From Comamonas serinivorans (GTDB lineage Bacteria; Pseudomonadota; Gammaproteobacteria; Burkholderiales; Burkholderiaceae_C), in NCBI RefSeq assembly GCF_002158865.1, contig NZ_CP021455.1:1096835-1160834 (forward strand): 64,000 nt of DNA, read 5' to 3'. The notes below the pieces were generated by a model. The model had not been told where the DNA came from, did not search any database, and saw nothing but the letters and a program-made list of their open reading frames with translations. A program made the position numbers and the translations under genes. Positions 542-60,108 of this stretch are shown here, piece after piece; position 1 is the first letter of the stretch; each line of letters begins with the position of its first letter.

Positions 542-590
542 GGGTATGACTGTGCTTCCGTTGTTTCTACATCGGCAATGAGGCGATACT
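542..590. repeat. nested-palindrome repeat family, copy R0
   Basis: GGGTATGAC...TTCCGTT-GTTTCTAC-ATCGGCAA...GCGATACT. Between the rep stop and the GIY-YIG start. Confidence 0.7.
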
Positions 591-594
591 GCGC

Positions 595-1095
595 ATGATG
601 CATCCCGACGCCACGACCCACACCAATCCCGCTTCGTCGGATGCTCGGGCCACCTTGCGCCTGCACGGCCTGGTGCCTTGCGGGGCCTGGGCGCCCGGCC
701 GCTACGCCAGCGTGAGCCATTTGCGCGACCAATGCGCGTTTGGCCTCGCCTACGAGGTGCAGGCCGATTGGCGCACGCGGCCGCATGTGGTGTACGCCTT
801 CGTCGCCGGCGAGGCGGTGCTCTATGTCGGCGAAACCTCGGCCGGCATGGCGGCGCGCTTTGCCGGTTACCGCTACGGCAACCCCCTGGTCAGCGACACG
901 GACAACCGTGTCAAGCTCGCCCTCACGCGCACCCTGCAGGCGGGCGGCAGCGTGGCCATCTGGGCCACGCAACCGCAGGCCAGCCTCAGCCTGCCGGACG
1001 GCACGGTGTTGACCGTGCCCGCCAGCAAGCCGCTGGAGGAGGTCCTGATCGCGCGGATTCGGCCCGAGCTGAATGTGAAAATGCTCGCTGTCTGA
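595..1095 (+). CDS. GIY-YIG nuclease-domain protein
   Basis: VVYAFVAGEAVLYVGETS...RF.GY...E.VLIARIRPELN fits the GIY..YIG..R..E pattern of the GIY-YIG fold. Repeat copy R0 lies directly upstream. Confidence 0.6.
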   Translation: MMHPDATTHTNPASSDARATLRLHGLVPCGAWAPGRYASVSHLRDQCAFGLAYEVQADWRTRPHVVYAFVAGEAVLYVGETSAGMAARFAGYRYGNPLVSDTDNRVKLALTRTLQAGGSVAIWATQPQASLSLPDGTVLTVPASKPLEEVLIARIRPELNVKMLAV

Positions 1096-1112
1096 TTTGC
1101 TGGATCGCCCCC

Positions 1113-1760
1113 ATGCCTCAACCCCACGACACCGCCACGTCCCTGTCTTCGCCCGTCACGTTCACGCGCCTGGTGCGGGCGCGCCTGTGGCGCTGGGCCG
1201 GTTTGATGGGGGTGCTGGGGCTCACGGCCTGCGCCTCGGACGATTTCATGCGGCAGTACCAGGACATCGGCCGCACGACCTTGCCCGCGCTGCCCACGCC
1301 GCGGGCCACGGCCGAACCAGGCACCTGCCGGGACGTGACGCGCATGACCGCCCGCGACCTCTACGGCGAGTGGCGGCTCAGCCTGCTCAAGCCCAACGTG
1401 GGCGGCCACATGCGGCTGTCGCAGCACCCCGAGTTCTCGGAAAGCCTGCGCGGCCACATCGCCTACGGCGACGTGCAGGCCATTGCCTCGGGCGACGTCA
1501 CGGCCGGCCAGTTCGACCTCGACGAGTCTGCGGACGGCAAGCGCATGACCGCCACCTGGTCCGGCAAACTGACGCCCGCCGCCTGTGGCAACGAAATCCG
1601 CGGCACCTGGACCGACCTGGAGCGCGACCAGAGCAGCGCTTTCGTGCTTCGGCGCGTGGGCGGCGCAGCGGCTGCGGCCGACGCCGCCAGCACGCCCGTG
1701 CGCGACGAACTGCCCGATGGCGTGCAGGTGTTGCCGGTGCCCGAACCGTCGCTGAACTGA
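1113..1760 (+). CDS. hypothetical lipoprotein
   Basis: Internal ATG of the 678..1760 ORF. Signal peptide plus lipobox (GVLGLTAC). The upstream part of the long ORF overlaps the GIY-YIG gene out of frame. Confidence 0.55.
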   Translation: MPQPHDTATSLSSPVTFTRLVRARLWRWAGLMGVLGLTACASDDFMRQYQDIGRTTLPALPTPRATAEPGTCRDVTRMTARDLYGEWRLSLLKPNVGGHMRLSQHPEFSESLRGHIAYGDVQAIASGDVTAGQFDLDESADGKRMTATWSGKLTPAACGNEIRGTWTDLERDQSSAFVLRRVGGAAAAADAASTPVRDELPDGVQVLPVPEPSLN

Positions 1761-1829
1761 GGCCTCAGCCGGGGCTGCGCGTGGCGCGGCTCCGGGCCGC
1801 GTCGGGCAAACAAACGCGTGGGATGCGGA

Positions 1830-4406: not shown

Positions 4407-4459
4407 GGGGGTATGCGCCCATTTCCGTTTAAAGAAAAACGCAAGTGGATGCATACCCC
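4407..4459. repeat. nested-palindrome repeat family, copy R2
   Basis: GGGGGTATGC ... CCATTTCCGTTT-AAAGAAA-AACGCAAGTGG ... GCATACCCC. Confidence 0.8.
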
Positions 4460-4617: not shown

Positions 4618-6603
4618 TCACTCGGGTGAGGGCGTCGGATCAGGGTGCCGCCTGCAGCCGTCAGTCGCCGGCTGCAACAGGTCTTGCACGCGTGCGCGCA
4701 TGGTCTCCAGCGTCTGCGCTTCGGGGGGCATGGCCTCGCCCACGCTCAGGCCCACCGGGCTGAAGGTCCCACGCCGGAATGGCTTGGTCATGGCGCCCGT
4801 GGGTTCGATGCGCGAGAAGTAGCTGCCCCAGAGGTTGGTCAGCGCCATGGGCACCACGGGCACGCTCAGGCCGTCGGCGCGCGCCTGCTCCAGGATCTTC
4901 AGCACCCCGCTCTTGAACGCACCCAGCTCGCCGTCGCGCGTGATGGCGCCTTCGGGGAAGATGGCCAGCAGCTCGCCTTCGCGCAGCACCTGGGCGGCTT
5001 CGACGAAGGCGCGCTCGTAGGCCGCGGGGTCGTCGCGTGCGGGGGCGATGGGGATGGCCTTGGCGAGCTTGAACAGCCAGCCCAGCACGGGCACCTTGAA
5101 GATCTGGTGGTCCATGATGAAGCGGATGGGCCGCGGGCTGGCCGCCATCAGCAGCACGGCGTCGATGAAGCTGACGTGGTTGGCGATGAGCACGGCCGGA
5201 CCGTCGGCCGGGATGTGGTCACGCCCGGTGATGCGGAAGCGGTACACCAGCTTGGTGAGCACCCAGGCGTGAAAGCGCAGCCAGTACTCGGGCACCAGGA
5301 AGAAGATGTAGGCCGCCACCAGCGCATTGGCGATGCCGGTGAACAGGAAGATCTGCGGGATGGAGAAGCCGGCCTGCAGCAGCGCGCCCGCGATCACGGC
5401 CGAGGCGATCATGAACAGCGCGTTGAGGATGTTGTTGGCCGCGATGATGCGCGCGCGGTGCGAGGGCCGGGCGCGCAGCTGGATGAGCGCGTACATGGGC
5501 ACGCTGAACAGGCCGGTGAACATCGACATCAGGCCCAGGTCGGCCATCACGCGCCAGTGCGCGCCCTGTTGCAGAAAGCCGCCCACGTCGAACAGGCCAC
5601 TGGCGGGCGGCGCGGGCAGGCTGCGCGTGGCGAAGAACAGGTCGATGGCGAACACCGTCATGCCGATGGCGCCCACGGGCACCAGCCCGATCTCGACCTG
5701 GTGGCCCGACAGCTTTTCGCACAGCAGCGCCCCCACGCCGATGCCGACCGAGAACACGGCCAGCAGCAGCGAGGCGACGTGGGCGTCGCAGTGCAGCACT
5801 TCTTTGGCAAAGGCCGGAAACTGGCTGAGGAACACAGCGCCGAAGAACCACATCCACGAGATGCCCAGCAGCGAGCGGAACACGGCCAGCTGCTCGTGCG
5901 CCAGGCGCAGGTTGCGCCAGGTTTCGGTCACAGGGTTCCAGTTCACCTGCAAGCCGGGGTCGGTGGCCGGCGACACAGGGATGAACTGCGCCGCAAGCCG
6001 CCCCAGCAGGGCCAGCACCACGCACGAGATGCCCACCCATTCGGGCCCCACCTGCGGCACCACCACCAGCACCCCGCCCACCAGCTGGCCCAGCAAGATG
6101 GCGACGAAGGTGCCCATTTCGACCATGCCGTTGCCGCCCGTCAGTTCGCGCTCGGACAGGTGCTGCGGCAGGTAGGCGAACTTCACCGGGCCGAACAGGG
6201 TGGAGTGCAGGCCCATGAGGAAGGTGCACAGCAGCAGCACCGGCACGTTGGCGCTGAAGAAGCCCCAGGCCGCCAGGGCCATGATGGCCACCTCCAGCCA
6301 TTTGACGAAGCGGATCAGCGCGCGCTTTTCCAGCTTGTCGGCCAGCTGGCCGCTGGTGGCCGAGAACACCAGATAGGGCAGGATGAACAGCGCGCCGATC
6401 ACCAGGCCCGCCATGTCGGCCGGCAGCCAGCTCACCTGCAGCATGTAGGTCACCATCACGGTGAACGCGAACTTGAAGAGGTTGTCGTTCGCGGCGCCGG
6501 CAAACTGGGTCCAAAAAAACGGCGCAAAGCGGCGCTGGCCCAGCAAGGCGAACTGCCCGGAGGGCGCTTGGCCGGCCTGGGCCTGGCGGGTCGATTCGGT
6601 CAT
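4618..6603 (-). CDS. MFS lysophospholipid transporter fused to acyltransferase (LplT/Aas-like)
   Basis: Twelve-TM MFS body followed by a PlsC-type acyltransferase domain with NHVSFIDAVLL (HX4D) and FPEGAITRDG. Start trimmed to MTESTRQ. Confidence 0.8.
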   Translation of the reverse strand: MTESTRQAQAGQAPSGQFALLGQRRFAPFFWTQFAGAANDNLFKFAFTVMVTYMLQVSWLPADMAGLVIGALFILPYLVFSATSGQLADKLEKRALIRFVKWLEVAIMALAAWGFFSANVPVLLLCTFLMGLHSTLFGPVKFAYLPQHLSERELTGGNGMVEMGTFVAILLGQLVGGVLVVVPQVGPEWVGISCVVLALLGRLAAQFIPVSPATDPGLQVNWNPVTETWRNLRLAHEQLAVFRSLLGISWMWFFGAVFLSQFPAFAKEVLHCDAHVASLLLAVFSVGIGVGALLCEKLSGHQVEIGLVPVGAIGMTVFAIDLFFATRSLPAPPASGLFDVGGFLQQGAHWRVMADLGLMSMFTGLFSVPMYALIQLRARPSHRARIIAANNILNALFMIASAVIAGALLQAGFSIPQIFLFTGIANALVAAYIFFLVPEYWLRFHAWVLTKLVYRFRITGRDHIPADGPAVLIANHVSFIDAVLLMAASPRPIRFIMDHQIFKVPVLGWLFKLAKAIPIAPARDDPAAYERAFVEAAQVLREGELLAIFPEGAITRDGELGAFKSGVLKILEQARADGLSVPVVPMALTNLWGSYFSRIEPTGAMTKPFRRGTFSPVGLSVGEAMPPEAQTLETMRARVQDLLQPATDGCRRHPDPTPSPE

Positions 6604-6901: not shown

Positions 6902-7753
6902 TCAGCGCCGCCGCATGGCCCAGCCGATGGGCACCACCGCCAGCGCCGCCACCGCGTGCTTGAGGCTGTGGCCGGCCACCCAGCCCTGGGTCAGCTCGAA
7001 CACGGCGTGGTCGCCCAGCTCCAGCACCTTGGCGGCGATGTAGGCCAGCACCACCCAAAGCCAGCGCACCCCCAGGCCGTCCGGCCGGTTGGGACTCAGG
7101 CCCAGACCCACCAGCAGCGCCAAGCCGGCGCCTTGCACCAGCGCCCAGGGCGTCATGTTGCCCACCTGCCAAGCCCACAGGGCCGCGCTGGCCGAGGCCA
7201 GCAGCAGCGGCAGCGGCAGCGCGCGACCCAGGCGGGGGCTCACGCGGTCGGCCACAGCCAGGCCGATCACGCCGGCAAAGGCCAGCGACATGCCGAGCCG
7301 GTCCACGGCCAGGCCCGCATCGCCGGGCGCCCAGTGGTAGACGCTGGAGCCCGCGGCCGTGGCGATCAGGCCCAGCACCACCCATCGCACGAGCACCATG
7401 CAAGTATGGTCGGCCATTCGATCATGGATGAAGGTAGATGAACCGATACCCGATGAAAAGATGGCGGCTCGCCGCCACAGCCACAGCGCCGCCAGGACGA
7501 ACGGTGCGTTGCTGAGCACGTCCAGGGCGTGCGGCAGTGCGCCCCAGGCGCGCTGGTCGGCGAAGTCGTGGTAGCCGGCGGGCAAGGGTGCGGCGGGCAG
7601 GCCGGCGGCCAGCACCACGGCGGCCAGCAAGGCCAGCAGCACGAGCCACTCGGCGCGGCGCAAGGGACCGAGGGCAGGGTGGGCGGGTTGGACGACGCCG
7701 GCCACGCCGGTAGACGGGGACGGGCGAGCGGCGGGCGGGCGAGCGTGTGGCAT
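6902..7753 (-). CDS. polytopic membrane protein, ceramidase (alkaline phytoceramidase)-like family
   Basis: YHDFADQR..G.P...DVLSN motif, several TM segments and SSVYHW/DRLGM motifs. Carries repeat copy R3 in frame (see findings). Confidence 0.5.
   Translation of the reverse strand: MPHARPPAARPSPSTGVAGVVQPAHPALGPLRRAEWLVLLALLAAVVLAAGLPAAPLPAGYHDFADQRAWGALPHALDVLSNAPFVLAALWLWRRAAIFSSGIGSSTFIHDRMADHTCMVLVRWVVLGLIATAAGSSVYHWAPGDAGLAVDRLGMSLAFAGVIGLAVADRVSPRLGRALPLPLLLASASAALWAWQVGNMTPWALVQGAGLALLVGLGLSPNRPDGLGVRWLWVVLAYIAAKVLELGDHAVFELTQGWVAGHSLKHAVAALAVVPIGWAMRRR
7403..7451. repeat. nested-palindrome repeat family, copy R3 (inside CDS 6902..7753)
   Basis: AGTATGG ... TTCGATCATGGATGAA ... CCGATACCC. 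Translated in frame as SGIGSSTFIHDRMADHTC. Locally AT-rich third positions. Confidence 0.6.
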
Positions 7754-11929: not shown

Positions 11930-12991
11930 TCAGACAGGGGTGCCTGGCGGCCGCTCGCCCTGGCCGTGTGCAGCCTGGGTTGGCGGGATGTGCTGGGCAT
12001 CGGCGGGGGAGTTTGCGCCAGTTTCCGATGATGTTTCGGGTTCATTGACGTAATACTGCTGGCCGCCACCCGACTCGTAGTAAATGCGTGTGAGCAGCTC
12101 GCCAATCAGGCCGGCGGCGACGAAGGTGATGCCCATCAGCACCAGCATCACGCCGACGATGAGCAGCGGGCGCCCGCCGATGTCGTGACCGAACAGCTTG
12201 AGGAGGAACAGCCAGGCCAGGATGAGGAAACCCGGCGTGGCCAGCCACAGGCCCACGCCCCCGAAGGCGTGCAGCGGGCGCTGGCGGTAGCGCATCAGGA
12301 AGACCATGAGGATCAGGTCCAGGATGACGCGGAAGGTGCGGTCGATGCCGTACTTGGACACGCCGCGTGTGCGGGCGTGGTGGCGCACGGGCACCTCGGT
12401 GATGCGGGCGCCGGCATCGCGCGCCAGCGATGGGATGAAGCGGTGCAGTTCGCCATAAAGGTGGATGCGGTCGATGATGTGCCGCCGGTAGGCCTTGAGC
12501 GCGCAGCCATAGTCGTGCAGCTGCACGCCGGTGGCCTGGGAGATCAGGCGGTTGGCGATTTTGGACGGCAGCTTGCGCGAGAGCGCCGCGTCCTGCCGGT
12601 CCTTGCGCCAGCCCGAGACCATGTCCACGTCGGGATCGGTCTCGAGCCGGTTCAGCAGCAGCGGGATGTCGTCGGGCTCGTTCTGCAGGTCGGCATCCAG
12701 CGTGACCACGTAGCGGCCGCGCACGCGGTCGAAGCCCGCCTGCAGGCCGCTGGACTGGCCGTAGTTGCGGGCCAGCAGCACGGGGCGCAGCCAGGGCCGC
12801 GTGCGGGCCAGCTCGAGCAGCAGCTTGCCGCTGCCGTCGCGGGAGCCGTCGTCCACGGCAATCAGCTCGAACGACAGCGGCTGGCTGCGCATGGCGGCCT
12901 CGATGCGCGTGACCAGGTCGGGCAGGTTGTCCACCTCGTTGTAGATGGGGACGACGATGGAGACCTCAGGGGGTGTGGAAATGGGCTGCAT
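11930..12991 (-). CDS. GT2 polyprenyl-phosphate glycosyltransferase (ArnC/RgtE-like)
   Basis: SIVVPIYNE...AVDDGSRDGS...LARNYGQ...TLDADLQNEP followed by two C-terminal TM segments. The C-terminal tail is read through repeat copy R6. Confidence 0.85.
   Translation of the reverse strand: MQPISTPPEVSIVVPIYNEVDNLPDLVTRIEAAMRSQPLSFELIAVDDGSRDGSGKLLLELARTRPWLRPVLLARNYGQSSGLQAGFDRVRGRYVVTLDADLQNEPDDIPLLLNRLETDPDVDMVSGWRKDRQDAALSRKLPSKIANRLISQATGVQLHDYGCALKAYRRHIIDRIHLYGELHRFIPSLARDAGARITEVPVRHHARTRGVSKYGIDRTFRVILDLILMVFLMRYRQRPLHAFGGVGLWLATPGFLILAWLFLLKLFGHDIGGRPLLIVGVMLVLMGITFVAAGLIGELLTRIYYESGGGQQYYVNEPETSSETGANSPADAQHIPPTQAAHGQGERPPGTPV
12008..12059. repeat. nested-palindrome repeat family, copy R6 (in the 3' end of the GT2 gene)
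   Basis: GGAGTTTGC ... TTTCCGATGA-TGTT-TCGGG ... GTAATACTGC. The minus strand resembles R13 (TCATCGGAAA.TGGC.GCA.ACTCC). Confidence 0.6.
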
Positions 12992-13159: not shown

Positions 13160-14752
13160 ATGCCCCGTTCGCCCGCTGCTTCCTCAGACGCCGCCCGTCC
13201 GTCCCCTGCGCAGCGGCCCTGGCTGCAAGCCCTGTACGACAACCCCTGGCCCTGGCTGCTGGCCTTTTTGCTGGCCCACGTGGTGTCGCGCGGCGTGATC
13301 TCAACCGGCATGAAATGGGACGAGTCCGAGCAGATTCTCTGGTCGCAGCAGCTGGCCCTGGGCTATGGCGCGCAGCCGCCGCTCTACACCTGGCTGCAGT
13401 GGGCCGTGATCCAGGTGCTGGGGCCGTCGGTGCTGGCGCTGGCGCTGGTCAAGCACGCGGCCATTGGCCTGACCTATGTGCTGGCCTGGCTGGCCGCGCG
13501 GCAGCTGCTCACGGCGCGCGGTGCCTTCTGGGTCGCCAGCGGGCTGCTGCTGATGCCGCCTTTCGGCTGGAACGCGGTGCGCGACCTGACCCACACCGTG
13601 CTCGTCACGGCGATGGCGCTGGGCCTGTGCGGGGCCGTGCTGCGCCTGGTGCAGGCGCCCAGACCGGGCCACTACGCGCTGGTGGGCCTGTTCTGCGGCC
13701 TGGGCATGATGGCCAAGTACAGCTTTGCCCTGAGCATCGGCGCGTTCTTCGTCGCCTGCCTCACGGTGCCGCAGGCGCGGCGCGCCCTGTTTCAGCGCGG
13801 CTGGTGGCTGGCGCCGCTGGTGGGCCTGCTGATCTTCGCGCCCAACGGCTGGTGGGTGCTGAACCATTGGCACGAGGCCACGGCGGCCACCCTGGACAAG
13901 ATGGAGATCTCGCAGCAGGTGTCGGTCTTCACCGGCGCCGCGAACCTGCTGCAGATCACGGCGTCCACGTTGCTGCTGTGGGCCCTGGTGGTGGTGCTGG
14001 CCTTTCGCGGCCAGCTGCGCGCGCCCTTGCCCGCCGACGCCGATGCCCGCTGGCCCTGGCGCAGCTGGGCCTGGCCGCTGCTGGGGCGCTACCTGCTGTT
14101 CGTCGGCCTGGCCATGGTGGCCATGGTCGTGCTGGGCGATGTGAGCAACTTCAAGGAGCGCTGGCTGCTGCCCCTGGTGGCCGTGGTGCCGTTGGCGTTC
14201 TTCGTCTGGCGCCCGTCGCTGCAGGCCGACGACAACCCGCGCGGCGGCCTGTACACCGGGGCGGTGCTGGTGTTCGCGCTGATCTTCTTCGCCATGGCGA
14301 CGGCGCGGCCCTGGGTGGCCGGTGCACGCAACCAGGACAAGCCCGGCGAGGCCGACGAGCTGACTTTTCCGGTGCCCGAGCTGGCGGCCCGGCTGCGCCA
14401 GGCGGGCTACGACGGGCGTGGCGACATCGTGGGCGCCGACCACATGCTGGCGGCCATGATGCGGTCCGAGTTTCCCCAGGTGCAGGCGCGCGGCTGCGCG
14501 CCTTTGCCAGGTCGCACGCCGGCGGCCTGCGTGGCCCAGGCCCTGCAGCAGGCGCGTGCCACAGGGCGGGGCCTGCTGCTGGTGTCGCGTGCCCGTGACG
14601 CGGGCTGGTGGGCCGCAGTATTGCCCCAGACTGGTTACAAAGAGTACGAGAGCATGGCCATACCTTCTTCCAAAATGCCTGTTGACGCGGCACCGATGCC
14701 GTTCCATTTCGTGTGGGTGCCCCCGCAGACCGTGCCGGGGGCGCAGCCATGA
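13160..14752 (+). CDS. ArnT/PMT-like (GT39/GT83) lipid-linked sugar transferase
   Basis: Polytopic protein starting [26 protein letters not shown]. Divergent from the GT2 gene. The first 325 aa of the 12185..14752 ORF are antisense to the GT2 gene and were trimmed. Confidence 0.75.
14615..14664. repeat. nested-palindrome repeat family, copy R7 (in the 3' end of the ArnT-like gene)
   Basis: GCAGTATTG ... GGCCATACC outer arms with a degenerate interior. A partial inner-arm-like GATGCCGTTCCATTTCG follows. Confidence 0.5.
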
Positions 14753-15768
14753 GCACGGTGCTGGTCACCGGCGTGGCGGGCTTCATCGGCATGCATTGCG
14801 CGCGCGAGCTGCTGGGCCAGGGCCACCAGGTCGTGGGCATCGACAACCTCAACGCCTACTACGAGGTCTCGCTCAAGCAAGCGCGGCTGGCCCAGCTGCA
14901 GGCGCACCCGCATGCCGCGAACTTCCGCTTCGAGCGGCTGGACGTGGCCGACCGCGACGGCATGGCCCGGTTGTTCGACGCCACGCGCCCCACGCGCGTG
15001 CTGCACCTGGCCGCCCAGGCCGGCGTGCGCTACTCCATCGACCAGCCCGACGACTACACCGACGCCAACCTGCTGGGCTTTGGCAACGTGCTGCAGAACG
15101 GCCGCCGCCACGCCGTGCAGCACCTGGTGTATGCCAGCAGCTCCAGCGTCTACGGCGGCAACGCCAAGATGCCCTATGCCGAGCGCGATGCCGTCGACCA
15201 CCCCATCAGCTACTACGCGGCCACCAAGAAGGCCAACGAGCTGATGGCGCACACCTACGCCCACCTTTACGGCATGCCGACGACGGGCTTGCGCTTCTTC
15301 ACCGTCTATGGGCCCTGGGGCCGGCCCGACATGGCCTTGTTCAAGTTCACGCGCGCCATGCTGGCGGGCGAGGCCATCGACGTCTACGGCCAGGGCCAGC
15401 TGGTGCGCGACTTCACCTTCATCGACGACATCGTCCAGGGGGTGCTGCGCGTGCTGGACAAACCCGCCACGCCCGATGCCCAGTACGACGCCATGGTGCC
15501 CAATCCGGGAACGAGCACGGCCCCATACCGCATCTTCAACATCGGCAACAGCCAGCCCACGGTGCTGATGGACTACATCGCCGCCATCGAGCGCGCCCTG
15601 GGCGTCACCGCCAACAAACGCATGCTGCCCATTCAGCCGGGCGACATGCAGGCCACTTCGGCCGACACGCGTGCCCTGCGCGACTGGGTCGGCTTCGAGC
15701 CCGGCACGCCCGTGACCGTCGGCGTGCAGCGCTTCGTGGATTGGTACAGGGAGTTTTTCCGCACATGA
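14749..15768 (+). CDS. UDP-glucuronate 4-epimerase (NAD-dependent epimerase family)
   Basis: [69 protein letters not shown] are hallmarks of the LpsL/Cap1J-type epimerases. ATGA overlap with the upstream gene. Confidence 0.8.
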
Positions 15769-17142: not shown

Positions 17143-17195
17143 CCAGTATGGGTTGGTTGCCGTTGATGAAAAAACGGCAATGAGCTTATACCCCC
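17143..17195. repeat. nested-palindrome repeat family, copy R8
   Basis: CCAGTATGGG ... TTGCCGTT-GATGAAAA-AACGGCAA ... CTTATACCCCC. Between ugd and the GIY-YIG/DUF4357 gene. Confidence 0.85.
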
Positions 17196-18518: not shown

Positions 18519-19406
18519 TCAGCGCCCGAAGGCGAACACGGCCGGGTCGTGCTTGCTGGGCAGGGCCACGGCATTCGCCTCGGCGTTCGCCCCGCTGGCG
18601 CGCAGCCAGCTGCGCCACTGGCTCACGCTGCCGCTGCGCGTGTGGCCGCCCGGCAGGGTCAGGCCCCAGCTCAGCGACAGCCGCGTGTTGGGCTGCAAGC
18701 CTTGCACCAGCGCCTGCAGCAGCGCGGCGTTGCGGAACGGGGTTTCGATGGCGATCTGCGTTTGCCCGGTTTTGAGCGCGTGCGCCTCCAGCTGCTTGAT
18801 GCGCGTGCTGCGTTGGCTGGCGTCCTGCGGCAGGTAGCCGATGAAGGCAAAGCTCTGCCCGTTCAGGCCGCTGGCGGCCAGCGCCAGCAGCAGCGACACC
18901 GGGCCGGGCAGGACGACCACGGGCACGCCCAGGGCATGTGCGGCCCGCACCACGGCGCTGCCGGGGTCGGCAATCGCGGGCATGCCGGCCTCGCTGATCA
19001 GGCCCACGTCCAGGCCTTGCTGGGTGGGGGCCAGCCAGGCGCGGGCCGCGGCCTCGGTCTGGCGGCCGGCCTCGTGGGTGCCGTCGTGGTCGCCCTGCTT
19101 GTGCGCGGCGCGCGGCAGTTCGCTGATCTGCATCTGCTGCAGCGGCACGGCCAGCGGGCAGACCTCGCCGATGCGTTTGAGCACGGCCCGGGCCGTCTTG
19201 GCGTTTTCGCACACCCAGTGCGTGATCTGCGAGGCGGTGTGCAGCACGCCGTGGGGCAGCACCTCGGTGATGGGCACACCCGCTTCGCAGCCGAAGTCCA
19301 GCGGCGCCGGCACCAGCACCAGGCGCCCCGGCGCACGCGGGCTTGGTTGCTCGCTGGGGGATGAAGAAACTTCGGCAGTATCGGGATTTTCCGTTGAGTG
19401 CGTCAT
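18519..19406 (-). CDS. SAM-dependent methyltransferase, tetrapyrrole-methylase (RsmI-like) superfamily
   Basis: GLISEAGMPAIADPG...VVVLPGPVSLLLALAASGL...F.F.GYLP. Lies immediately downstream of maf. The annotated start codon and first ~11 codons lie inside repeat copy R9, so the start is uncertain. Confidence 0.65.
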   Translation of the reverse strand: MTHSTENPDTAEVSSSPSEQPSPRAPGRLVLVPAPLDFGCEAGVPITEVLPHGVLHTASQITHWVCENAKTARAVLKRIGEVCPLAVPLQQMQISELPRAAHKQGDHDGTHEAGRQTEAAARAWLAPTQQGLDVGLISEAGMPAIADPGSAVVRAAHALGVPVVVLPGPVSLLLALAASGLNGQSFAFIGYLPQDASQRSTRIKQLEAHALKTGQTQIAIETPFRNAALLQALVQGLQPNTRLSLSWGLTLPGGHTRSGSVSQWRSWLRASGANAEANAVALPSKHDPAVFAFGR

Positions 19407-19426
19407 CGGTAATGCTAGATACTGGG
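19374..19426. repeat. nested-palindrome repeat family, copy R9
   Basis: GGCAGTATCGGG ... TTTTCCGTT-GAGTGCGTC-ATCGGTAA ... CTAGATACTGGG. Fills the maf/methyltransferase junction. Confidence 0.75.
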
Positions 19427-35019: not shown

Positions 35020-35133
35020 AAGGCTAAGCATTCCACAATGGGATGATCAACAGCGCGCCCGCCGGCTTGCACGGTGGGGCGCATGCAGCGGCTGGCCCAA
35101 GGCCGGGTGCACGACATGGAGAGGGAGACGCAC

Positions 35134-35802: not shown

Positions 35803-35883
35803 CGCGCGTCGTTCGCCGCAACGCCTGGGCCGCGGTGGCCTGAATGTCGGTCCGACCGTGCACTGGGCAGGACGTGGGGCCAG

Positions 35884-35916
35884 TGAATCGCCTGCAACGC
35901 CCCTGCAGACGATTCA
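35884..35916 (+). promoter_or_regulatory. candidate enhancer (UAS) inverted repeat upstream of P2
   Basis: TGAATCG-N19-CGATTCA lies 110-140 bp upstream of P2. It shares the GATTCA core with sites upstream of P1 and P3. Confidence 0.35.
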
Positions 35917-36025
35917 TGGGCGGGCGTAGAGTTCGCATCGAAAGCGATACAGTGGGATCGTGTTCGGCGGTCATGGTGGCGTGCAGCCCTGCTGTCGCCC
36001 TGGGGTGAAGCGGGATGGGCCGAAC

Positions 36026-36041
36026 TGGCACGGCCGTTGCG
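36026..36041 (+). promoter_or_regulatory. sigma-54 promoter P2
   Basis: TGGCACGGCCGTTGCG is a perfect TGGCAC-N5-TTGC. The predicted start lies a few nt before the stem of tRNA-like RNA 1 (36059). Confidence 0.75.
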
Positions 36042-36058
36042 AAGGATGAGGTGAACGT

Positions 36059-36146
36059 GGGCCCAGGTCTGGGGTGGCGCAAAGCGAGCGCGTCGGACTT
36101 GAATCCGAAGGGTGCTGGTGCAAGTCCAGCCCCCAGACCTGGGCCC
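36059..36146 (+). ncRNA. tRNA-like / Y-RNA-like cloverleaf RNA 1
   Basis: Perfect 16-bp stem GGGCCCAGGTCTGGGG (36059-74) / CCCCAGACCTGGGCCC (36131-46). It encloses TG, D-like arm GCGC-AAAGCGA-GCGC, G, anticodon-like arm TCGGA-CTTGAA-TCCGA, AGGGT, and T-like arm GCTGG-TGCAAGT-CCAGC. There is no CCA end. Confidence 0.65.
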
Positions 36147-36292
36147 GCGAAACCCGGGGGCGCGACGGCGCGAGGCAGGCCTTGACGCGGCGGCCGTGTC
36201 GGCAAGGGTGCAGCGAGAAGCGGCTACCAGGCCGGTTGCCACGCATCGCAGCCCGTCGGCCAGCCCGACCGGCAGGGGATGAGGTCAGGTGT

Positions 36293-36373
36293 GCAACGGT
36301 CTGGCGCAGTTCAAGGAGAACGCCCGACCATGCATCGGGAAGGTGCTGGACAAGCCAGCCGCCAGACCGTTGC
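36293..36373 (+). ncRNA. tRNA-like / Y-RNA-like cloverleaf RNA 2 (paralogue of RNA 1)
   Basis: Perfect 14-bp stem GCAACGGTCTGGCG / CGCCAGACCGTTGC. It encloses CA, GTTC-AAGGA-GAAC, G, CCCGA-CCATGCA-TCGGG, AAGGT and GCTGG-ACAAG-CCAGC. The topology matches RNA 1, with compensatory changes in the D-like and anticodon-like stems. Confidence 0.65.
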
Positions 36374-36422
36374 GCATGGGCCAGTCCCCGTCCCGATCCA
36401 CACGAACACAGGGAGAGCGGCC

Positions 36423-39320: not shown

Positions 39321-39710
39321 GCAGGTCGGGTGAGGTCAGGTGAAGCCAGCGGGGCCATGGGGCCCCATCTTCCAGGTTGGCCCGAATGGTGACCGTGGGT
39401 CTGGGTGCCGGTGCTGCCGCCCCAGGCGTTCGCTGTGGGCGCCTGGCGGACTGGCGCCGAGGAACGGAGGAGCTTGCGCGACAATCCGGCATCCGGTCCG
39501 GGCGAGGCTCGCTAGGACATGGCCATGGCGCGCGGCGGTCAGCACGCGGCGGTGTCGGCCCCGCAGCCGCGCGATCCCGGTGGTCGGGTGCAAGTGCCCT
39601 GTCGGCTTGCGTTCCACGCCAACAGGCCTGCTGCCGTGCCTCGTGCCATGTCAACCGTTGCTTGACGGTCGGCGGGCCCCGTGCCCACGCCGTGTTGTTC
39701 AGAAGTACCC

Positions 39711-40454
39711 ATGCCTTTACGCATCGACGAAGCCATCACCCAGCTGGATCACGGCTGGCTCAGCCATTTGAAATCGCAGGGTTACGGCGGCGATGCCTTG
39801 CGCCAGGCGATCGACCTGGTGCTGTACGCCCAACAGCAGGCGGCGGCGCGCAACAGCGCCGAGTTCAAGGCCGCCATCGCGCGCGTCAACCACCTGGTGG
39901 GGGCGGGCATCGCGTGTGACAACAACGGCGACTACCTGTACACGGCCGAGTGGCGCGACCCGGCTTGCGCCGGGCTGGGCTTCGCCATCGAATACGCGGC
40001 CGACCCGGCCAGCTGGCGGGCCGAGTTCCGCATGCCCGGCTGCTGGCCGCACACCGTGGACAACCTCGACATCACCGACACCCGCGCTGTGGACCACGAC
40101 TTTGCGCTCTGGCTGGCGCGCGCCAGTGCCCGCCATTTCACGCACCTGATCGAACGCCAGCTGCCCGAAGGCGAAGCACTGCGCGCGCCCTGTACGGCGG
40201 CCGTGCGGGCCGGCACCTGGGCCGAATTCGTGTGCCTGCACCCACTGCAACCCGTGGCCCGCCTGGGGCACGAGCGGCTGGAGCAGGCCGCCTGGTCGGC
40301 CCAATACCCCAGTGCCGCCCAGCGCGAGTTGCAGGCCCGCTTCGATGTGCAGAGCGCCTTGCTGCTGCGCTTGATCGTGGTTCAGCAGGCAGCATGGGCT
40401 TGGCATGAAGAGTATGGCGACAATCGCGATGACGATTCAACGGGAAGGCATTGA
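39711..40454 (+). CDS. orphan protein (247 aa), no recognised domain
   Basis: ORF between the 965-aa gene and rtcA on the same strand. The last ~15 codons and the stop lie in repeat copy R16. Confidence 0.5.
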   Translation: MPLRIDEAITQLDHGWLSHLKSQGYGGDALRQAIDLVLYAQQQAAARNSAEFKAAIARVNHLVGAGIACDNNGDYLYTAEWRDPACAGLGFAIEYAADPASWRAEFRMPGCWPHTVDNLDITDTRAVDHDFALWLARASARHFTHLIERQLPEGEALRAPCTAAVRAGTWAEFVCLHPLQPVARLGHERLEQAAWSAQYPSAAQRELQARFDVQSALLLRLIVVQQAAWAWHEEYGDNRDDDSTGRH

Positions 40455-40460
40455 TACTCC
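40410..40460. repeat. nested-palindrome repeat family, copy R16
   Basis: GAGTATGGCG ... ATCGCGATGACGATTCAACGGGAA ... TTGATACTCC. Supplies the last codons and the stop of the 247-aa ORF. Confidence 0.65.
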
Positions 40461-40814
40461 ATTTGATGTGGCGCTTGCTGAGGGCTGCTTGCCCGACACC
40501 GGAAGGCTGGCGTCGACGCAGGGACATGACGCGTGGCCAGCGGTGCATGGGCTCGCCAGCCGCCCGCACAGCGCCCCCAACCCGCTGACTGGGCGTCCTG
40601 ATGCAGCAGGCCTGGCTCGACCTGCCCGTGCTCTTTCGCCTGCATGCGCAGGCGCGTGGCCAACAGGTGGCGCAGCCCGAGCGGGCCGATGGGGTGTTCG
40701 CCATCCAGGGCACGGCCAGCGCGCAGCCTCACACCGTCCGAGACGGACCGCATCCGGGCCGATTGCCTGTGAAGGCGGGCTTGCAAGGGGCGCTGCATGG
40801 ATCGCTGGCGCGCT

Positions 40815-40828
40815 GGATGAATCAAGCC
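40815..40828 (-). promoter_or_regulatory. candidate UAS upstream of P3
   Basis: The reverse complement reads GGCTTGATTCATCC, nearly identical to the 33281 site and ~110 bp upstream of P3. Weaker CTTGATCCGG (40886-95) and TTGATTTGG (40919-27) sites follow. Confidence 0.35.
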
Positions 40829-40934
40829 AGTTTGGCTTGCGGTGGCTGAGCCGTGGCGAGGCGCAGGCGCCCTCGACGCCAAGTGCTTGATCCGGCAAGG
40901 GTTTGCGCGGCTCGCCTGTTGATTTGGCGGGGCC

Positions 40935-40950
40935 TGGCACGCCGCGTGCA
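40935..40950 (+). promoter_or_regulatory. sigma-54 promoter P3 (rtcA)
   Basis: TGGCACGCCGCGTGCA has correct GG/GC spacing and lies 38 nt upstream of the rtcA ATG. Confidence 0.65.
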
Positions 40951-40987
40951 ACGAGGATGGCCACACACAACTCAACTGGGAGCACAC

Positions 40988-42193
40988 ATGCCAACCGACG
41001 ACCAGGTGGAGGCGAAGCCGCGTCACCGTGACCCAGCTCGCACGGCCACCGCCGCAGACACCAAAAGCGTGACCGGCGCAGCGCAGACGGGCCGTGGCGC
41101 AGCCATCGAGATCGATGGCTCGCAGGGCGAGGGCGGCGGGCAGATCCTGCGCACGGCGCTGGCCTTGTCCATGATCACCGGCCAGCCGCTGCACCTGCGC
41201 GCCATCCGCGCCAAGCGGCCCAAGCCCGGGCTCATGCGCCAGCACCTGATGTGCGTGCAGGCGGCCGCGCAGGTCAGCGGGGCCCACATCAGCGGGGCCG
41301 AGCTGGGGGCCACCGAGTTGCGCTTCGCGCCGGGCCCGGTGCGGGCGAGCGCCTACGAATTTGCCATGGCCAGCGCAGGCAGCTGCATGCTGGTGCTGCA
41401 GACCGTGCTGCCGGCGTTGATGCTGGCCGATGCCCCCAGCACGCTGGTGCTGCGGGGCGGCACGCACAACCCCATGGCGCCCAGCTTCCACTTTGTGCGC
41501 GATGCCTTTGCGCCGCTGGTGCAGCGCCTGGGCGCCGGCCTGACGCTGCAGCTGCAGCGGCTGGGCTTTTACCCCGCAGGCGGTGGCGAGGTCACGGCCA
41601 CCATCACGCCTGCGGCCCGCCTGACCCCGTTCGACCTGACCGAGCGTGGCGAGCTGCAGCAGGGCGATGCTCTGTGCCTGACGCCGGGGCTGTCGGGGTC
41701 GATCGCGCGCCGCGAGCTGACGGCGCTGGGCCAGGCCATGGGCTGGGGCGAGGACCGCTTGCGCTTTGGCGAGGCCAGGCAGCACGAGGGGCCGGGCAAT
41801 GCCTTGATCGCCCGCCTGCGCTACGCCCACGTGACCGAGGTGTTCGTCGAGCTTGGGGCCCGCAACCTGTCGTCGGAGCAGGTGGCCGGCAAGCTGGTGC
41901 AGGCCATCCGGGCGTTTCAACGCCGGCCAGGTGCCGCGGTGGGCCCACACTTGGCCGACCAGCTGGTGCTGCTGCAGGCCCTGGCCGTGTGGCAGGCCGG
42001 ACGGACCGGCAGCCAGGCGGATGCGCCCCACGCCGATGTGCCCCAGGCGGATGTGCCGCAAGCACGCTTCTCGTGCAGCGAGGTGACCGAGCACTTGCGC
42101 ACCAACTGCGTGGTGATCGAACGCTTTCTGCCCGTGCGCTGCACGCTGACCCAGGGCCCTGTGTCCCGGGTGACGGTGCGCTGGGCGGGGTGA
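40988..42193 (+). CDS. rtcA: RNA 3'-terminal phosphate cyclase RtcA
   Basis: IEIDGSQGEGGGQILRTALALS..TG.P..L..IRA.R..PGL..QHL. RBS GGGAG upstream of the ATG at 40988. N-terminal ~35-aa extension and a 15-nt x3 in-frame repeat near the C-terminus. Confidence 0.85.
   Translation: MPTDDQVEAKPRHRDPARTATAADTKSVTGAAQTGRGAAIEIDGSQGEGGGQILRTALALSMITGQPLHLRAIRAKRPKPGLMRQHLMCVQAAAQVSGAHISGAELGATELRFAPGPVRASAYEFAMASAGSCMLVLQTVLPALMLADAPSTLVLRGGTHNPMAPSFHFVRDAFAPLVQRLGAGLTLQLQRLGFYPAGGGEVTATITPAARLTPFDLTERGELQQGDALCLTPGLSGSIARRELTALGQAMGWGEDRLRFGEARQHEGPGNALIARLRYAHVTEVFVELGARNLSSEQVAGKLVQAIRAFQRRPGAAVGPHLADQLVLLQALAVWQAGRTGSQADAPHADVPQADVPQARFSCSEVTEHLRTNCVVIERFLPVRCTLTQGPVSRVTVRWAG
42017..42061 (+). 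repeat. 15-nt x3 in-frame tandem repeat inside rtcA
   Basis: GCGGATGCGCCCCAC / GCCGATGTGCCCCAG / GCGGATGTGCCGCAA, encoding ADAPH-ADVPQ-ADVPQ. Confidence 0.7.
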
Positions 42194-49251: not shown

Positions 49252-49305
49252 GCCAGTATGGGGAAGATGCCGTTGTTAAAAAAACGGGAGGGGCTAGATA
49301 CTGCC
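49252..49305. repeat. nested-palindrome repeat family, copy R19
   Basis: GCCAGTATGGGG ... ATGCCGTT-GTTAAAAA-AACGGGAG ... CTAGATACTGCC. Confidence 0.85.
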
Positions 49306-54056: not shown

Positions 54057-54106
54057 GAGTATCAGCCCATTGCCGTTCATCAACAAACGGTGATGGGGTG
54101 ATACGG
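54057..54106. repeat. nested-palindrome repeat family, copy R21
   Basis: GAGTATCAGCCCA ... TTGCCGTT-CATCAACA-AACGGTGA ... TGGGGTGATACGG. Confidence 0.85.
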
Positions 54107-55706: not shown

Positions 55707-55758
55707 TGAGTATGGCCTCATTCCCGTTGTTCATTGAACGGGAACGAGGCCATACTCA
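55707..55758. repeat. nested-palindrome repeat family, copy R22 (most regular copy)
   Basis: TGAGTATGGCCTC / GAGGCCATACTCA perfect 13-bp outer arms. Inner TTCCCGTT-GTTCATTG-AACGGGAA is a perfect 8 bp. Confidence 0.9.
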
Positions 55759-57044: not shown

Positions 57045-57232
57045 GGGCAGGTGGCGTGGCGTCGGCCGGTGCAAGGCTGCGTGGCCGGTGAACCCGCGAT
57101 TGTCGCCGCAACGGCGCCAGGGGGCGCCGTGCGGGTGTGTCATTGAGGCGATGCAACAGGCGCCGGTGGCCTGCAGGCCATGGGCGGCATCGGCGGCCTT
57201 GCGCCGTGCGGGCTTGCCTGGGTGTCAGCCCC

Positions 57233-58801
57233 TTATCCGTTGTCGTCGCCGCCCTCGGGCAGGCGCTCGATCCGCACGGTCTTGATGCGCTGGGGATCCA
57301 CCTCGTCCACCGTGAACGCGTAGCCCTGGTGAACCGTGCTGGCGCCGCGCGCGGGCAGCTCACCAAACACGCGCAGCAGGTAGCCGGCCAGCGAATAGGC
57401 CTCGCTGCCCTGCACCAGGCCGTCCACGCCGAGGGTGCTTTCCAGCTGGTGCAGGTCAGCCGTGCCGGCCACGCGCCAGCGCCCGTCGCCGGCCGGCTGG
57501 ATCTCCAGCTGTTCGTCCTCGTCGGGGAATTCGCCGGCAATCGCTTCCAGCACGTCGATGGGGGTGACGATGCCCTTGAGGGTGCCGTCCTCGTCGTTGA
57601 CCAGCACCAGTTGGCCCTTGGCGCTTCGCAACACGCCGATCACGTCGATGACCAGCATGGATTCGGGCACGAACACGGGCTGGCGCAGGTAGCCGTTGGG
57701 CTCCAGCCGGCCCCTCTCTTCGATGGCGCCGAGCAGGTCCTTGGCGCGGGCCACGCCCAGCACCTGGTCCAGCGAGCCCTGGCACACCGGGTACATGCCG
57801 TGCGGCGCGGCCAGCAGCTTGCGTCGGTTCACGGCGCCATCGTCATCGACGTCCACCCACGAGATGTTGGAGCGCAAGGTCATGATGGAGCGCACGTTGC
57901 GCTCGGCCAGGCGCAGCACGCCGCCCACCATGTGGCGCTCTTCGGCCGCGAAGGCCGGTTCCGGGGCATCCGGCTCGGCTCCGCCACCCGCGGTGGCCGC
58001 CTGGGTGGCCTGCGCCGTCGTGCGGTGCCCCAACAGGCTCAGCACGCGCTCGGCCGTGCGTTGGCGCAGTGGCAGGCGCGCCTCGTGCTTGGCCGCGTTG
58101 CGGTTGGCCAGCTGGTTGAAGAACTCGATCAGGATGGAGAAACCGATCGCCGCGTACAGGTAGCCCTTGGGCAGGTGGAAGCCCAGGCCCTCGGCCACCA
58201 GCGACAAGCCGATCATGAGCAGGAAGCTCAGGCACAGCACGACGACGGTGGGGTGCGCGTTGACGAAGCGCGTGAGCGGCTTGGAGGCCAGCAGCATCAC
58301 GCCGATGGAGATGACCACGGCGGCCATCATCACGGGCAGCTGGTCCACCATGCCGACGGCGGTGATCACGGCGTCGAGCGAGAACACCGCGTCGAGCACC
58401 ACGATCTGCGCCACCACGAGCGAGAAGCTCGAGTAGGCGACTGTGGCGGTGGCCTGGTGCTGCACGCCTTCCAGCCGCTCGTGCAACTCCGAGGTGGCCT
58501 TGAACAGCAGGAACAGGCCGCCAAAGAGCAGGATCAGGTCGCGTCCCGAGAACGGATGGCCGAACACGTGGAACAGCGGTGACGTGAGCGTCACCAGCCA
58601 GGAGATCACCGACAGCAGGCCCAGGCGCATGATCAGCGCGAGGCTCAGTCCGATCACGCGGGCGCGGTCACGCTGGTGCGGCGGCAGCTTCTCGGCCAGG
58701 ATGGCGATGAAGATCAGGTTGTCGATGCCCAGGACGATTTCCAGGACGACGAGCGTGGCCAGGCCGACCCAGACGGCCGGGTCGGTCAGTAATTCAAGCA
58801 T
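57233..58801 (-). CDS. TerC-family membrane protein with CBS pair and CorC/HlyC C-terminal domain
   Basis: [16 protein letters not shown].. TerC motifs, then CBS domains and a transporter-associated C-terminal domain. Confidence 0.85.
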
Positions 58802-59112
58802 GGTGGGGATGGGTTAGGCGCGAGACCGGCCAGGCCGGCAAGGGCTGCCGGCAGCGGTGCGCACAAGAAGATGGGGGACGACCAGCACGGGATGCTGGCG
58901 GGTGGTGTCGAGCAAGGCCGTCGACTGGGGGGCTCGGCGTCGCTTGACGCAGAAGGAGAGTCCATGCGCAAAATTTTATCGGGGCCTCGAATGTCCCCGA
59001 GAGGCCCGGGCCGAAGGGGGCTTTAGCGGGCCGCCGAAGGCTGGTGCCATCGACCGGATGTCCGACAGGCATGGTCGGTCCTTCTATGCTTGGCCGTTTG
59101 AGCGGATCTCGC

Positions 59113-59703
59113 ATGCACCTTTTTCCACCGGCACACCCCTTGCTCACGCCGCGGCTGCAACTGCGGCGTTTTCGCGACACCGACTTCGCCGCGTATGCCG
59201 CCTACCACGGTGACCCGCAGGTGTACCGCTTTCTGTACCAGGCCGCACCCGAGGCCGACCGGCTGGGAACGCAGTTCGCCGAGGTGTTGCGCGCACCGTT
59301 CGACGGCGATGGGCACGCCTTGCGCCTGGCGGCCGTGCGCCAGGCCGATGAGGCCGTTGTCGGTGAGGTGCTGCTCAAGATCGCCAGCCTCGCGGCCTTG
59401 CAGCTGGAGGTGGGCTACATCTTCAACCCGCGCTTTGGCGGCCAGGGCTATGCGACTGAGGCGGTGCGCGCCCTGCTGAATTGGGGCTTCGAGGGCATGG
59501 GCGCCCACCGGATCTTTGCGCGGCTGGATGCGCTCAACACGGCCTCTGTCAAGGTGGTGGAGCGCCTGGGCATGCGCCGGGAAGCCCACTTGATCCAGAA
59601 CGACCGGTTCAACGGTGTCTGGGGAGACGAGTACATCCATGCGTTGTTGCGGTCCGAGTGGCCGCAGGTGGCTGTGTGCCCTGGCCAGGGCCCAGCAGGA
59701 TGA
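59113..59703 (+). CDS. GNAT-family N-acetyltransferase (RimJ/RimL-like)
   Basis: T.RL.LRRF...D......Y..DP.V..F; VGY.F.P.F.GQGYATEA..A.L..GF......HRI.A......N..S..V.E.LGM..E. Confidence 0.75.
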   Translation: MHLFPPAHPLLTPRLQLRRFRDTDFAAYAAYHGDPQVYRFLYQAAPEADRLGTQFAEVLRAPFDGDGHALRLAAVRQADEAVVGEVLLKIASLAALQLEVGYIFNPRFGGQGYATEAVRALLNWGFEGMGAHRIFARLDALNTASVKVVERLGMRREAHLIQNDRFNGVWGDEYIHALLRSEWPQVAVCPGQGPAG

Positions 59704-60055
59704 GGTGTTCGGCCTGGGGCAGGCCAGATGCCGGTCGAGCGACCCGGCCTCGGTCCCGATGATGGGGTGGCGAGGCATCGCAGCGCCATCTTGGGTGACT
59801 ACGCGATGGCATCGCCCATGGCGAACACCCTCTGCATGACGTGGGCGGCCACGGGTGTGAGGCTGCGTCTTGCCTGCGCGACCTGGCCGGGGGTCTGCTG
59901 ATGGATGCCATCGGCGTCGTGGCCTTCGCGCCGGTGCTGCTGGCGCGGCGCTGCTGGGCGTGGCCCTGCTGCTGCAACGCAGATCGCCCGCTCACCCGGC
60001 GCTGCAAGCCTGCTGGGCCGTTGTCCAGCCATCCACATCGCAGTGCAATTCTTGT

Positions 60056-60108
60056 GCAGTATGGGTCAACTTCCGTTTGATTGACATCGGATATGCGGGT
60101 ATACCCAT
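60056..60108. repeat. nested-palindrome repeat family, copy R23
   Basis: GCAGTATGGGT ... CTTCCGTTT-GATTGAC-ATCGGATA ... GGGTATACCCAT. Confidence 0.65.

Follow-up and report, generated by a model that had tools for sequence, protein, structure and literature searches.

A 64,000-nt stretch of the Comamonas serinivorans genome (contig NZ_CP021455.1, positions 1,096,835 to 1,160,834; hereafter the window) carries a dense family of short palindromic repeats, with 21 supported copies spanning positions 544 to 60104, comprising 20 ungapped 46-nt units and one with a 1-nt deletion. We classify these as a new repetitive extragenic palindrome (REP)-like family lying outside the GTAG and CGTC superfamilies, and assign it to the REP type because it is a discrete unit that has been inserted at least once, without duplication, forms a compensated hairpin, and is piled up at gene 3′ ends. 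Taken as a whole, the evidence makes it likely that this is a lineage-restricted family that probably spread as a single-stranded DNA hairpin and would act as an mRNA 3′-end structure. Elements of this kind are well known, and the unusual part is an orthologous in-frame copy that appears to be constrained at the nucleotide level.

The repeat unit and its hairpin

Counted from the G of GTAT through the C of ATAC, the 46-nt unit has the consensus GTAT-N10-(C)CG(T/A)T-N8-A(A/T)CG(G)-N10-ATAC, or more fully R-GTAT-G(G)-N-TTN-CCGTT-N8-AACGG-NAA-N-(C/G)-ATAC-Y, and is 48–54 nt long when the variable complementary flanks are included; it has ~49% G+C in a genome of 70% G+C. The 5′ G, T, and A and the 3′ A, T, A, and C are invariant in the 20-copy alignment, and the inner CG/CG is at least 90% conserved. 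Together with the copies found in relatives (see below), the tag is GTAT in 26 of 27 copies and GTAC in one, and it is paired with ATAC, at both ends.

Repeat detection sorts the copies into overlapping families. A covariance model trained on the 20 ungapped copies matches all of these same copies at 36–57 bits (E = 1e-5 to 6e-10) and picked up the 21st (19378–19422) at 19.5 bits. Strict patterns gave 3 and 7 exact matches in the window versus 0.00 in 100 dinucleotide shuffles, and a half-site matrix detected 39 of the 40 halves, with 2 extra matches versus 0–3 in shuffles; because the halves occur only in pairs, the element exists as a whole dyad. The dense family of nested palindromes described in an earlier note on this DNA is thus borne out by the gapless alignment, the covariance model, and the shuffle controls, but with 21 copies rather than 24, as three look-alikes in conserved coding sequence (CDS) score no more than 22 bits. 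Two of these (12011–12056 and 15483–15528) are 46-nt GT(T/A)(T/C)...ATAC segments in glycosyltransferase and epimerase CDS, with low scores and Pfam coverage without an insertion, and are probably chance matches; the third (14611–14667) also resembles chance. A genome-wide number of ~1,500 copies is an extrapolation only, and would apply if the window density is uniform.

The copies are listed here with the covariance-model score in bits and, for those folded against shuffles, the z value; no strand is assigned to them.

544–589: 6 nt after the stop of a UvrD-like helicase gene (+), co-directional gap; weak hairpin; 41.1 bits, z = 0.14
2933–2978: CGAT/ATCG subfamily, between the LemA (-) stop and the M48 peptidase (-) start; 48.5 bits, z = -4.0
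4411–4456: convergent gap between DUF2322 (+) and MFS/acyltransferase (-) genes; 53 bits, z = -6.2
7404–7449: intragenic and in frame in a ceramidase-like gene, 6902–7663 (-), CCO03_04625; 37.2 bits; orthologous in L018, L019, L021, and L034
8774–8819: 140 nt after the stop of an HTH_26 regulator gene (+); 38.3 bits; orthologous to L018 2984–3040 and L019 652–697
10224–10269: 24 nt 5′ of the start of a DsbA-like gene, co-directional gap; 46.9 bits, z = -6.8
17146–17191: 10 nt after the UDP-glucose dehydrogenase stop, occupying most of an 84-nt gap; 54.9 bits, z = -5.7
19378–19422: 21st copy, 45 nt (1-nt deletion), ending 4 nt from the Maf gene (-) stop; 19.5 bits
20874–20919: CGAT-type, 11 nt after the LysE (+) stop, convergent gap; 36.4 bits
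23618–23663: GTAC variant, 5 nt after the histidinol dehydrogenase (+) stop; 47.7 bits
25448–25493: convergent gap, 124 nt from the stop of a DUF4136 gene (-); 45.7 bits, z = -4.1
30661–30706: CGATGA/TCATCG subfamily, 8 nt after the metH stop, filling a 70-nt convergent gap; 51.9 bits, z = -6.4
32612–32657: 30 nt 5′ of the start of a Band-7 gene (-), the sole copy in a divergent/non-coding gap; 41.6 bits
34970–35015: 4 nt after the RtcR (+) stop; 45.2 bits, z = -1.8
40412–40457: overlaps the last 43 nt of an open reading frame (ORF), 39711–40454 (+); 43.3 bits
43392–43437: convergent gap after a formyltransferase gene (+); 43.9 bits
46990–47035: between ferritin-like (+) and FKBP (+) genes; 55.3 bits, z = -4.0
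49256–49301: convergent gap between DEAD-box helicase (+) and LysR (-) genes; weak mid-stem; 46.4 bits, z = -1.2
54059–54104: convergent gap between TetR (+) and aminotransferase (-) genes; 46.8 bits, z = -6.0
55710–55755: near-perfect 22-bp hairpin, 41 nt after the stop of an Orn/DAP decarboxylase gene (-); 56.8 bits, z = -9.6
60059–60104: convergent gap, 45 nt from a histidine kinase (-) stop; 37.3 bits

The architecture consists of a GTAT/ATAC foot, a poorly conserved mid-stem, an inner stem of (C)CGNT/ANCG(G), and an A/T-rich 8-nt loop, with the stem covering 19–23 positions. RNAalifold returned no consensus structure for the 20 copies, and the hairpin was supplied by hand and tested by pair counts. 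Imposed in this way, it pairs 69.8% of cells in the 20 copies and 71.4% in the 27 copies that include relatives, versus 33–44% for slid partners, and none of 500 shuffles of the 27-copy set reaches the observed pairing, double-change count, or covariation score. Pair 22–33 is U-A in 11 copies, C-G in five, and A-U in three, pair 18–37 is G-C, U-A, G-U, or C-G, and the variable flanks outside GTAT/ATAC tend to pair too. The paired changes beside the CCGTT/AACGG core that had been noticed previously (TTGCCGTT/AACGGCAA, TTCCCGTT/AACGGGAA, and GTCCGTTT/AAACGGAC) are seen in both the alignment and the pair counts, as is the CGAT/ATCG subfamily, which the copy at 30661 carries as CGATGA/TCATCG. In nine of the 12 copies tested, folding is stronger than in shuffles, with z values from -4 to -9.6.

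An excess of A-rich loops on the + strand, also claimed in the earlier note, did not hold up, with 60 A versus 49 T in the loops (p = 0.34) and seven A-rich against four T-rich loops. Leave-one-out scoring suggests a weak shared polarity in 15 of 20 copies (p ~0.03–0.04), but this fails an expectation-maximisation control against symmetrised shuffles (observed 164, null 159 +/- 25).

Gene ends and orthologous copies

Copies occupy eight of the 12 convergent gaps, 11 of the 31 co-directional gaps, and one of the 12 divergent gaps, with one copy being intragenic (Fisher p = 0.02), and seven of 18 copies lie 4–11 nt from a stop codon, versus 3.6 expected under conservative gap sizes (P ~0.014). 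Only one of the 21 is clearly intragenic and a second overlaps a gene 3′ end; this copy, at 40412–40457, provides the final 14 codons and the TGA stop of ORF 39711–40454 (+), which has no Pfam match. The family is thus mostly extragenic, in convergent and co-directional gaps and near the upstream stop, in agreement with the placement published for REPs (PMC3733652).

In the window, hairpin-plus-T terminators of the canonical type are no commoner than expected by chance, and the repeat hairpins are therefore the main structure at its gene ends. As the earlier note had claimed, no copy has a U-tract or T run in its 3′ flank; a terminator scan reports none of the copies as an intrinsic terminator, and a sigma-70-type consensus scan reports no promoter site in any of them. 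The roles proposed there (mRNA 3′ stabiliser or terminator, or protein-binding site) are compatible with the placement, as judged from sequence. We suggest that the hairpin, when transcribed at gene ends, would form a 3′-end RNA structure that blocks 3′-to-5′ exonucleases, or alternatively may pause or terminate transcription without a U-tract. E. coli REPs near stop codons dampen translation termination of the upstream gene, and by analogy the copies lying 4–11 nt from a stop may do the same.

The 3′-end location, often a few nucleotides past the stop, and the scarcity of canonical terminators could also be explained if ordinary selection for hairpins produced the copies in situ as terminators or attenuators, without any past mobility. 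This is very improbable, since 21 independent origins of an identical 46-nt length, termini, and inner stem are not expected, and the U-tract is absent; moreover, one copy interrupts a reading frame and is missing from outgroup homologues, others lie 5′ of starts and in one divergent gap, and the family is absent from neighbouring genera with shared gene order.

Each copy stands alone: clusters, dimers, and mosaic partners are absent, and the window has no second hairpin family alongside. Core-masked flanks share nothing beyond chance words of 13–14 nt that would indicate a longer composite element. The copies at 40412 and 60059 share an extra 3′ flank (40458–40480 and 60105–60127), ATAC(T/C)CCAT(T/G)TTGATGTGGCG(C/T)TTGC, and GATG or TGATG words recur in many copy flanks; these may be a subfamily extension or merely stop- and start-codon context.

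No target-site duplication was found, as flanking direct repeats are no commoner than in shifted controls at any of nine boundary offsets (0–8) and four lengths (2–5). This bears on whether the repeats are classical miniature inverted-repeat transposable elements (MITEs), which derive by deletion from an insertion sequence with a DDE transposase and rely on their terminal inverted repeats for cut-and-paste movement. In favour of this, the unit is small and palindromic, has conserved ends (RGTATG...CATACY), and is interspersed at high density. In addition to lacking duplications, however, the unit has no internal body, the whole being one hairpin with a covarying inner stem rather than inverted repeats around a body, and no related insertion sequence or transposase is present in the window or the loci fetched from other genomes. 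The MITE-like affinity raised in the earlier note is accordingly one that we find hard to credit.

The copy at 7404–7449 lies within ORF 6902–7663 (-), CCO03_04625, which one source names an alkaline phytoceramidase. Third-position G+C is at least 0.9 in one frame on both sides of the copy and drops only across the element, and the deposited 253-aa protein reads through it. In a protein alignment, the closest homologues (54–62% identity) all have extra residues at this loop, and six more distant homologues, including those of Rhodoferax saidenbachensis and a Comamonadaceae metagenome-assembled genome (MAG), are without them; relative to these outgroup proteins, the copy reads as an insertion. 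Its counterpart is present in the DNA of L018, L019, L021, and L034, which are metagenomic contigs from relatives, at the identical site, in the same frame, and always at 46 nt.

Among these five genomes, the protein loop immediately upstream of the unit varies freely in length, and the residues encoded by the unit itself change (S-M, S-T, or G-I at one end; H-T or Y-T at the other), while GTAY and ATAC are constant. Over 248 ungapped codon columns, A/T makes up only 14.6% of third positions and is found there in all five genomes in just four columns, three of which are within the element (Fisher p ~9e-4). These comparisons argue for constraint on the in-gene unit at the nucleotide rather than the peptide level. 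The loop that carries the repeat in the C. serinivorans clade is occupied by another A/T-rich insert (…LQRLSILRNKLLNWKQINAAF…) in the ceramidase-like gene of an Ottowia sp. (L032 8342–9235), and this protein loop seems to tolerate insertions repeatedly.

A second orthologous site is that of the copy at 8774, which shares derived CCGGT...CGAC features with L018 2984–3040, where the left arm is deleted; a counterpart is also present in L019, and the surrounding intergenic DNA does not align. In L019, the HTH_26 stop is separated from the element by repeated segments of ~100 nt (600–1050; …CCCCCACGCTCCCTATGCGCTGCGCGCA…GGCCCTTCGC…), which are in neither the window nor L018. The copy at 4411 and L019 4993–5038 are both downstream of the MFS/acyltransferase gene, but we do not claim orthology for them, as they are 48% identical by hand count, like paralogues, and lie at unequal distances from the stop; L018 has no copy after this gene, so the site is not shared. 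The metH neighbourhoods of L022, L023, and L024 are not syntenic downstream of metH and have no copies, leaving the copy at 30661 without an orthologous site for comparison. Orthologous sites had been proposed as a check on mobility, and the outcome is mixed: at least two copies are fixed across species, whereas other sites differ and one copy is an insertion, from which we infer that the family was mobile in the past and that many copies are old.

Altogether, five metagenomic contigs (L018, L019, L020, L021, and L034) carry 46-nt GTAT-N38-ATAC units at a density similar to that of the window, with five units in 14.9 kb of L018, three in 5.1 kb of L019, and one each in L021 and L034; the in-gene copy of L020 is the same as that of L019. 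Neighbouring genes in L018–L021 have 86–95% protein identity to those of the window. The inner arms in these relatives are CCGCT/AGCGG, CCGCC/GGCGG, or GCGCT/GGCGG, changes that are compensatory relative to CCGTT/AACGG. No copies are present in ~110 kb from seven loci of other Comamonadaceae, in which ~36 are expected at window density; these are L003 (the 84%-TerC metagenome contig), L004 (Pseudorhodoferax Leaf274), L022, L023 (Comamonas sp. 4034), L024 (an Acidovorax MAG), and L032 and L033, both Ottowia sp. with the window's local gene order.

Broader searches returned little. The strict pattern GTAT-N10-CCGTT-N8-AACGG-N10-ATAC matched just two lone hairpins, one from an Actinomycetota MAG and one from Olsenella, in a collection of 185,579 species genomes that appears to lack the source genome (nothing from C. 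serinivorans was matched, although the window alone has eight exact matches), and gave 13 single matches in JGI metagenomes, mostly from an unrelated A/T-rich gut hairpin family; this pattern is too narrow and would miss the relatives, because their inner arms are CCGCT/AGCGG or CCGCC/GGCGG. A looser pattern gave six chance matches in IMG/VR, none confirmed by the covariance model. No Rfam family scores above its gathering threshold on any copy, relaxing the cut-off to E = 5 adds one spurious microRNA match, at 55707, and no description of the repeat family was found in the searchable literature.

The gut family consists of a perfect 46-nt hairpin, GTATAACGGTTTACCCGTT-N8-AACGGGTAAACCGTTATAC, followed by TAATTTTGG, which resembles the Bacteroidetes -7 promoter motif, on human-gut contigs of 39–49% G+C (L005 3746–3802, L006 6364–6420, L008 2035–2091 and 12546–12602, and also L009, L011, L013, L015, L016, and L017). 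Its geometry is that of the Comamonas element, but this was imposed by the scan pattern and is not evidence of kinship.

Relation to known repeat systems

In the broad sense of a stem-loop palindrome at high copy (21 in 64 kb), the family is a REP, and the REP-like character proposed in the earlier note is upheld by a high-density hairpin unit that is extragenic, at gene 3′ ends, occasionally intragenic, and without target-site duplication. Like the GTAG and CGTC REPs of E. coli and Pseudomonas and the SMAGs of Stenotrophomonas (Di Nocera et al. 2013, PMC3733652), the repeats are short imperfect palindromes at very high density with a conserved foot tetranucleotide, and they share with them subfamilies defined by complementary stem changes, frequent G·T pairs, a preference for convergent and co-directional gaps near the upstream stop, and occasional in-frame intragenic copies; some of the described families are also species-specific. 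Unlike these, the Comamonas copies are all solitary, without dimers or clusters of the bacterial interspersed mosaic element (BIME) type, and are A/T-rich (49% versus 70% G+C in the genome). They are single hairpins with no second repeat type rather than inverted doublets, and the BIME-like label is therefore dropped.

A second comparison is with REPINs and the REP-associated tyrosine transposases (RAYTs; Nunvar et al. 2010, PMC2817692), whose genes are typically flanked by REPs of their own. According to Bertels and Rainey, REP doublets that form hairpins are reportedly maintained together with a domesticated Y1 transposase. The likeness lies in a symmetric hairpin tagged at both outer ends, long vertical persistence, restriction to one lineage, and the absence of target-site duplication. 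In contrast to REPINs, the Comamonas halves are not themselves stem-loops and never occur alone, and there is no population of near-identical copies.

The in-gene copy recalls Rickettsia palindromic elements (RPEs) and intragenic REPs, in which an in-frame palindromic insertion leaves the gene open and is inherited by descendant species, although RPEs are 100–150 bp and unrelated in sequence, and only one of the 21 Comamonas copies is clearly intragenic. BRE (Hot et al. 2011, PMC3110155) is likewise an intergenic repeat in Comamonadaceae and Bordetella, but is ~90 bp, often tandem, at up to 29 copies per genome, and spread across families, and we consider it a different element.

As to how the REP-like family arose, we suggest that copy-and-insert movement of a single-stranded DNA hairpin spread it in the forerunner of a small Comamonadaceae clade, and that it would then have been retained for a long time. 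We speculate that the likely agent was an HUH/Y1 enzyme, of the RAYT or IS200/IS605 type, that recognised the conserved foot together with the loop-proximal CG.

Several observations weigh against this account. Described REPs carry an unpaired tag at one end, either GTAG (with variants GYAG, GYRG, GTRG, GTMG, and GTGG, the fourth base of GTAG-type tags always being G) or CGTC, and are 20–40 bp with stems of 6–13 bp and loops of mostly 2–4 nt (PMC3733652). The Comamonas tag is GTAT, is paired with ATAC, and is at both ends, and the unit has 46–54 nt, a stem of ~19 positions, and a fixed 8-nt loop, such that neither in tag nor in size and stem does it belong to the GTAG or CGTC superfamily. A tblastn search of the window and 33 loci with E. 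coli RayT gave a best E of 0.27, and no other HUH transposase was found in the window or any fetched locus. The copies are strongly diverged, with a mean column identity of 62% and only 82% identity in the closest pair, and as none are near-identical there is no sign of recent activity. On the + strand, G·T pairs outnumber A·C pairs (42 versus 25, p = 0.05), but this excess shows no relation to the orientation of nearby genes and does not identify an RNA strand. Finally, the mid-stem is paired in only ~50–55% of cells, and three of the 12 copies tested show no folding advantage over shuffles (z from 0.1 to -1.8) with the conserved blocks kept; since such weak-stem copies retain GTAT/ATAC and CG, recognition of the blocks seems to outweigh hairpin stability, which also fits a protein-binding site.

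The main rival explanation is that the copies are bound as double-stranded DNA by a host protein, such as one associated with the nucleoid or with DNA topology, that would contact GTAT, CG, CG, and ATAC spaced 14 bp apart; selection would keep such sites anywhere, and two-fold symmetry would give rise to the hairpin potential incidentally. The block spacing is indeed fixed, with no indel in 20 of the 21 window copies or the five orthologous in-gene copies, the blocks outlast decayed stems, the constraint within coding sequence is at the nucleotide level, and orthologous copies are retained while the flanking DNA diverges. A symmetric DNA-binding protein would not, however, require the compensatory changes between and beside the blocks (T-A, C-G, and A-U at 22–33; G-C, U-A, and C-G at 18–37), nor pairing of the flanks outside GTAT/ATAC, and the bias toward gene 3′ ends and avoidance of divergent promoters is the behaviour of transcribed hairpins or tolerated insertions. 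We know of no candidate protein, and on balance regard this explanation as improbable.

Within the REP-like reading, we entertain as a doubtful but not negligible idea that the family is a third kind of tagged palindromic repeat beside GTAG and CGTC, with a symmetric GTAT/ATAC fixed-length hairpin whose individual copies are under nucleotide-level purifying selection, being held at orthologous sites across species, at 46 nt, and A/T-rich even at the third positions of codons in a gene. If so, the cell or a resident enzyme would use or maintain each copy, and the repeats would not be decaying selfish DNA. The in-gene copy in five genomes offers a natural experiment that separates nucleotide-level from protein-level constraint, and should that constraint hold genome-wide, it would support the view that the chromosome keeps such repeats as functional parts and not as junk.

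REP-like elements can make up as much as 1–2% of a genome and shape mRNA stability, operon polarity, and genome rearrangement. Most of the detailed work on them concerns gamma- and alpha-proteobacteria. The present family is a well-delimited beta-proteobacterial case, from the Comamonadaceae, whose symmetric GTAT/ATAC tag is unusual. C. serinivorans is a lignin-degrading strain of biotechnological interest (PMC6307125), and the consensus can be used to annotate where its genes end and to keep hairpins of this family from being miscalled as small RNAs or terminators.

Neighbouring genes and RNAs in the window

The window has ~70% G+C, and its cumulative GC skew rises steadily across the 64 kb. 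Genes were called with a codon-usage model and then checked against Pfam, with 50 window proteins scanned, and the gene content is ordinary housekeeping, including a UvrD-like helicase, an M48 peptidase, LemA, the MFS/acyltransferase, histidinol dehydrogenase, MetH behind an S-adenosylhomocysteine (SAH) riboswitch, RtcR/RtcA, a DEAD-box helicase, and LrgAB. None of the 50 proteins has a transposase domain, Y1_Tnp included, and together with the RayT search this agrees with the earlier note that no transposase is in the window. Other features are as follows.

57233–58801 (-): TerC-family protein, 100% identical to a C. serinivorans protein, as are the ceramidase-like protein and MetH
27729–27850 (+): SAH riboswitch, directly 5′ of metH (27926–30652)
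5794–5915 (-): Rfam Bcj11 (Burkholderia RNA 11) match, 69 bits against a gathering score of 49
33313–42193: rtc locus
36068–36139 (+): tRNA-like sequence in the rtc locus, Rfam tRNA at 52.8 bits
32660–33310: ~650 nt without a coding frame

The Bcj11 match lies wholly within the MFS/acyltransferase CDS, 4618–6603 (-), and is either a conserved coding segment that the family models or an RNA embedded in the gene. ARAGORN could assign no anticodon to the tRNA-like sequence of the rtc locus, around which are RtcR (33313–34965), a SIMPL protein, an 891-aa ORF with no Pfam match (36645–39320), and RtcA (40988–42193); it could be a tRNA mimic of the Y-RNA/YrlA type. The non-coding segment at 32660–33310 adjoins the repeat copy at 32612–32657, the only one in a divergent gap, and contains a string resembling the 3′ half of a tRNA (GGGCGGGAATCGAACCCGC), which may be the remnant of an integration site.

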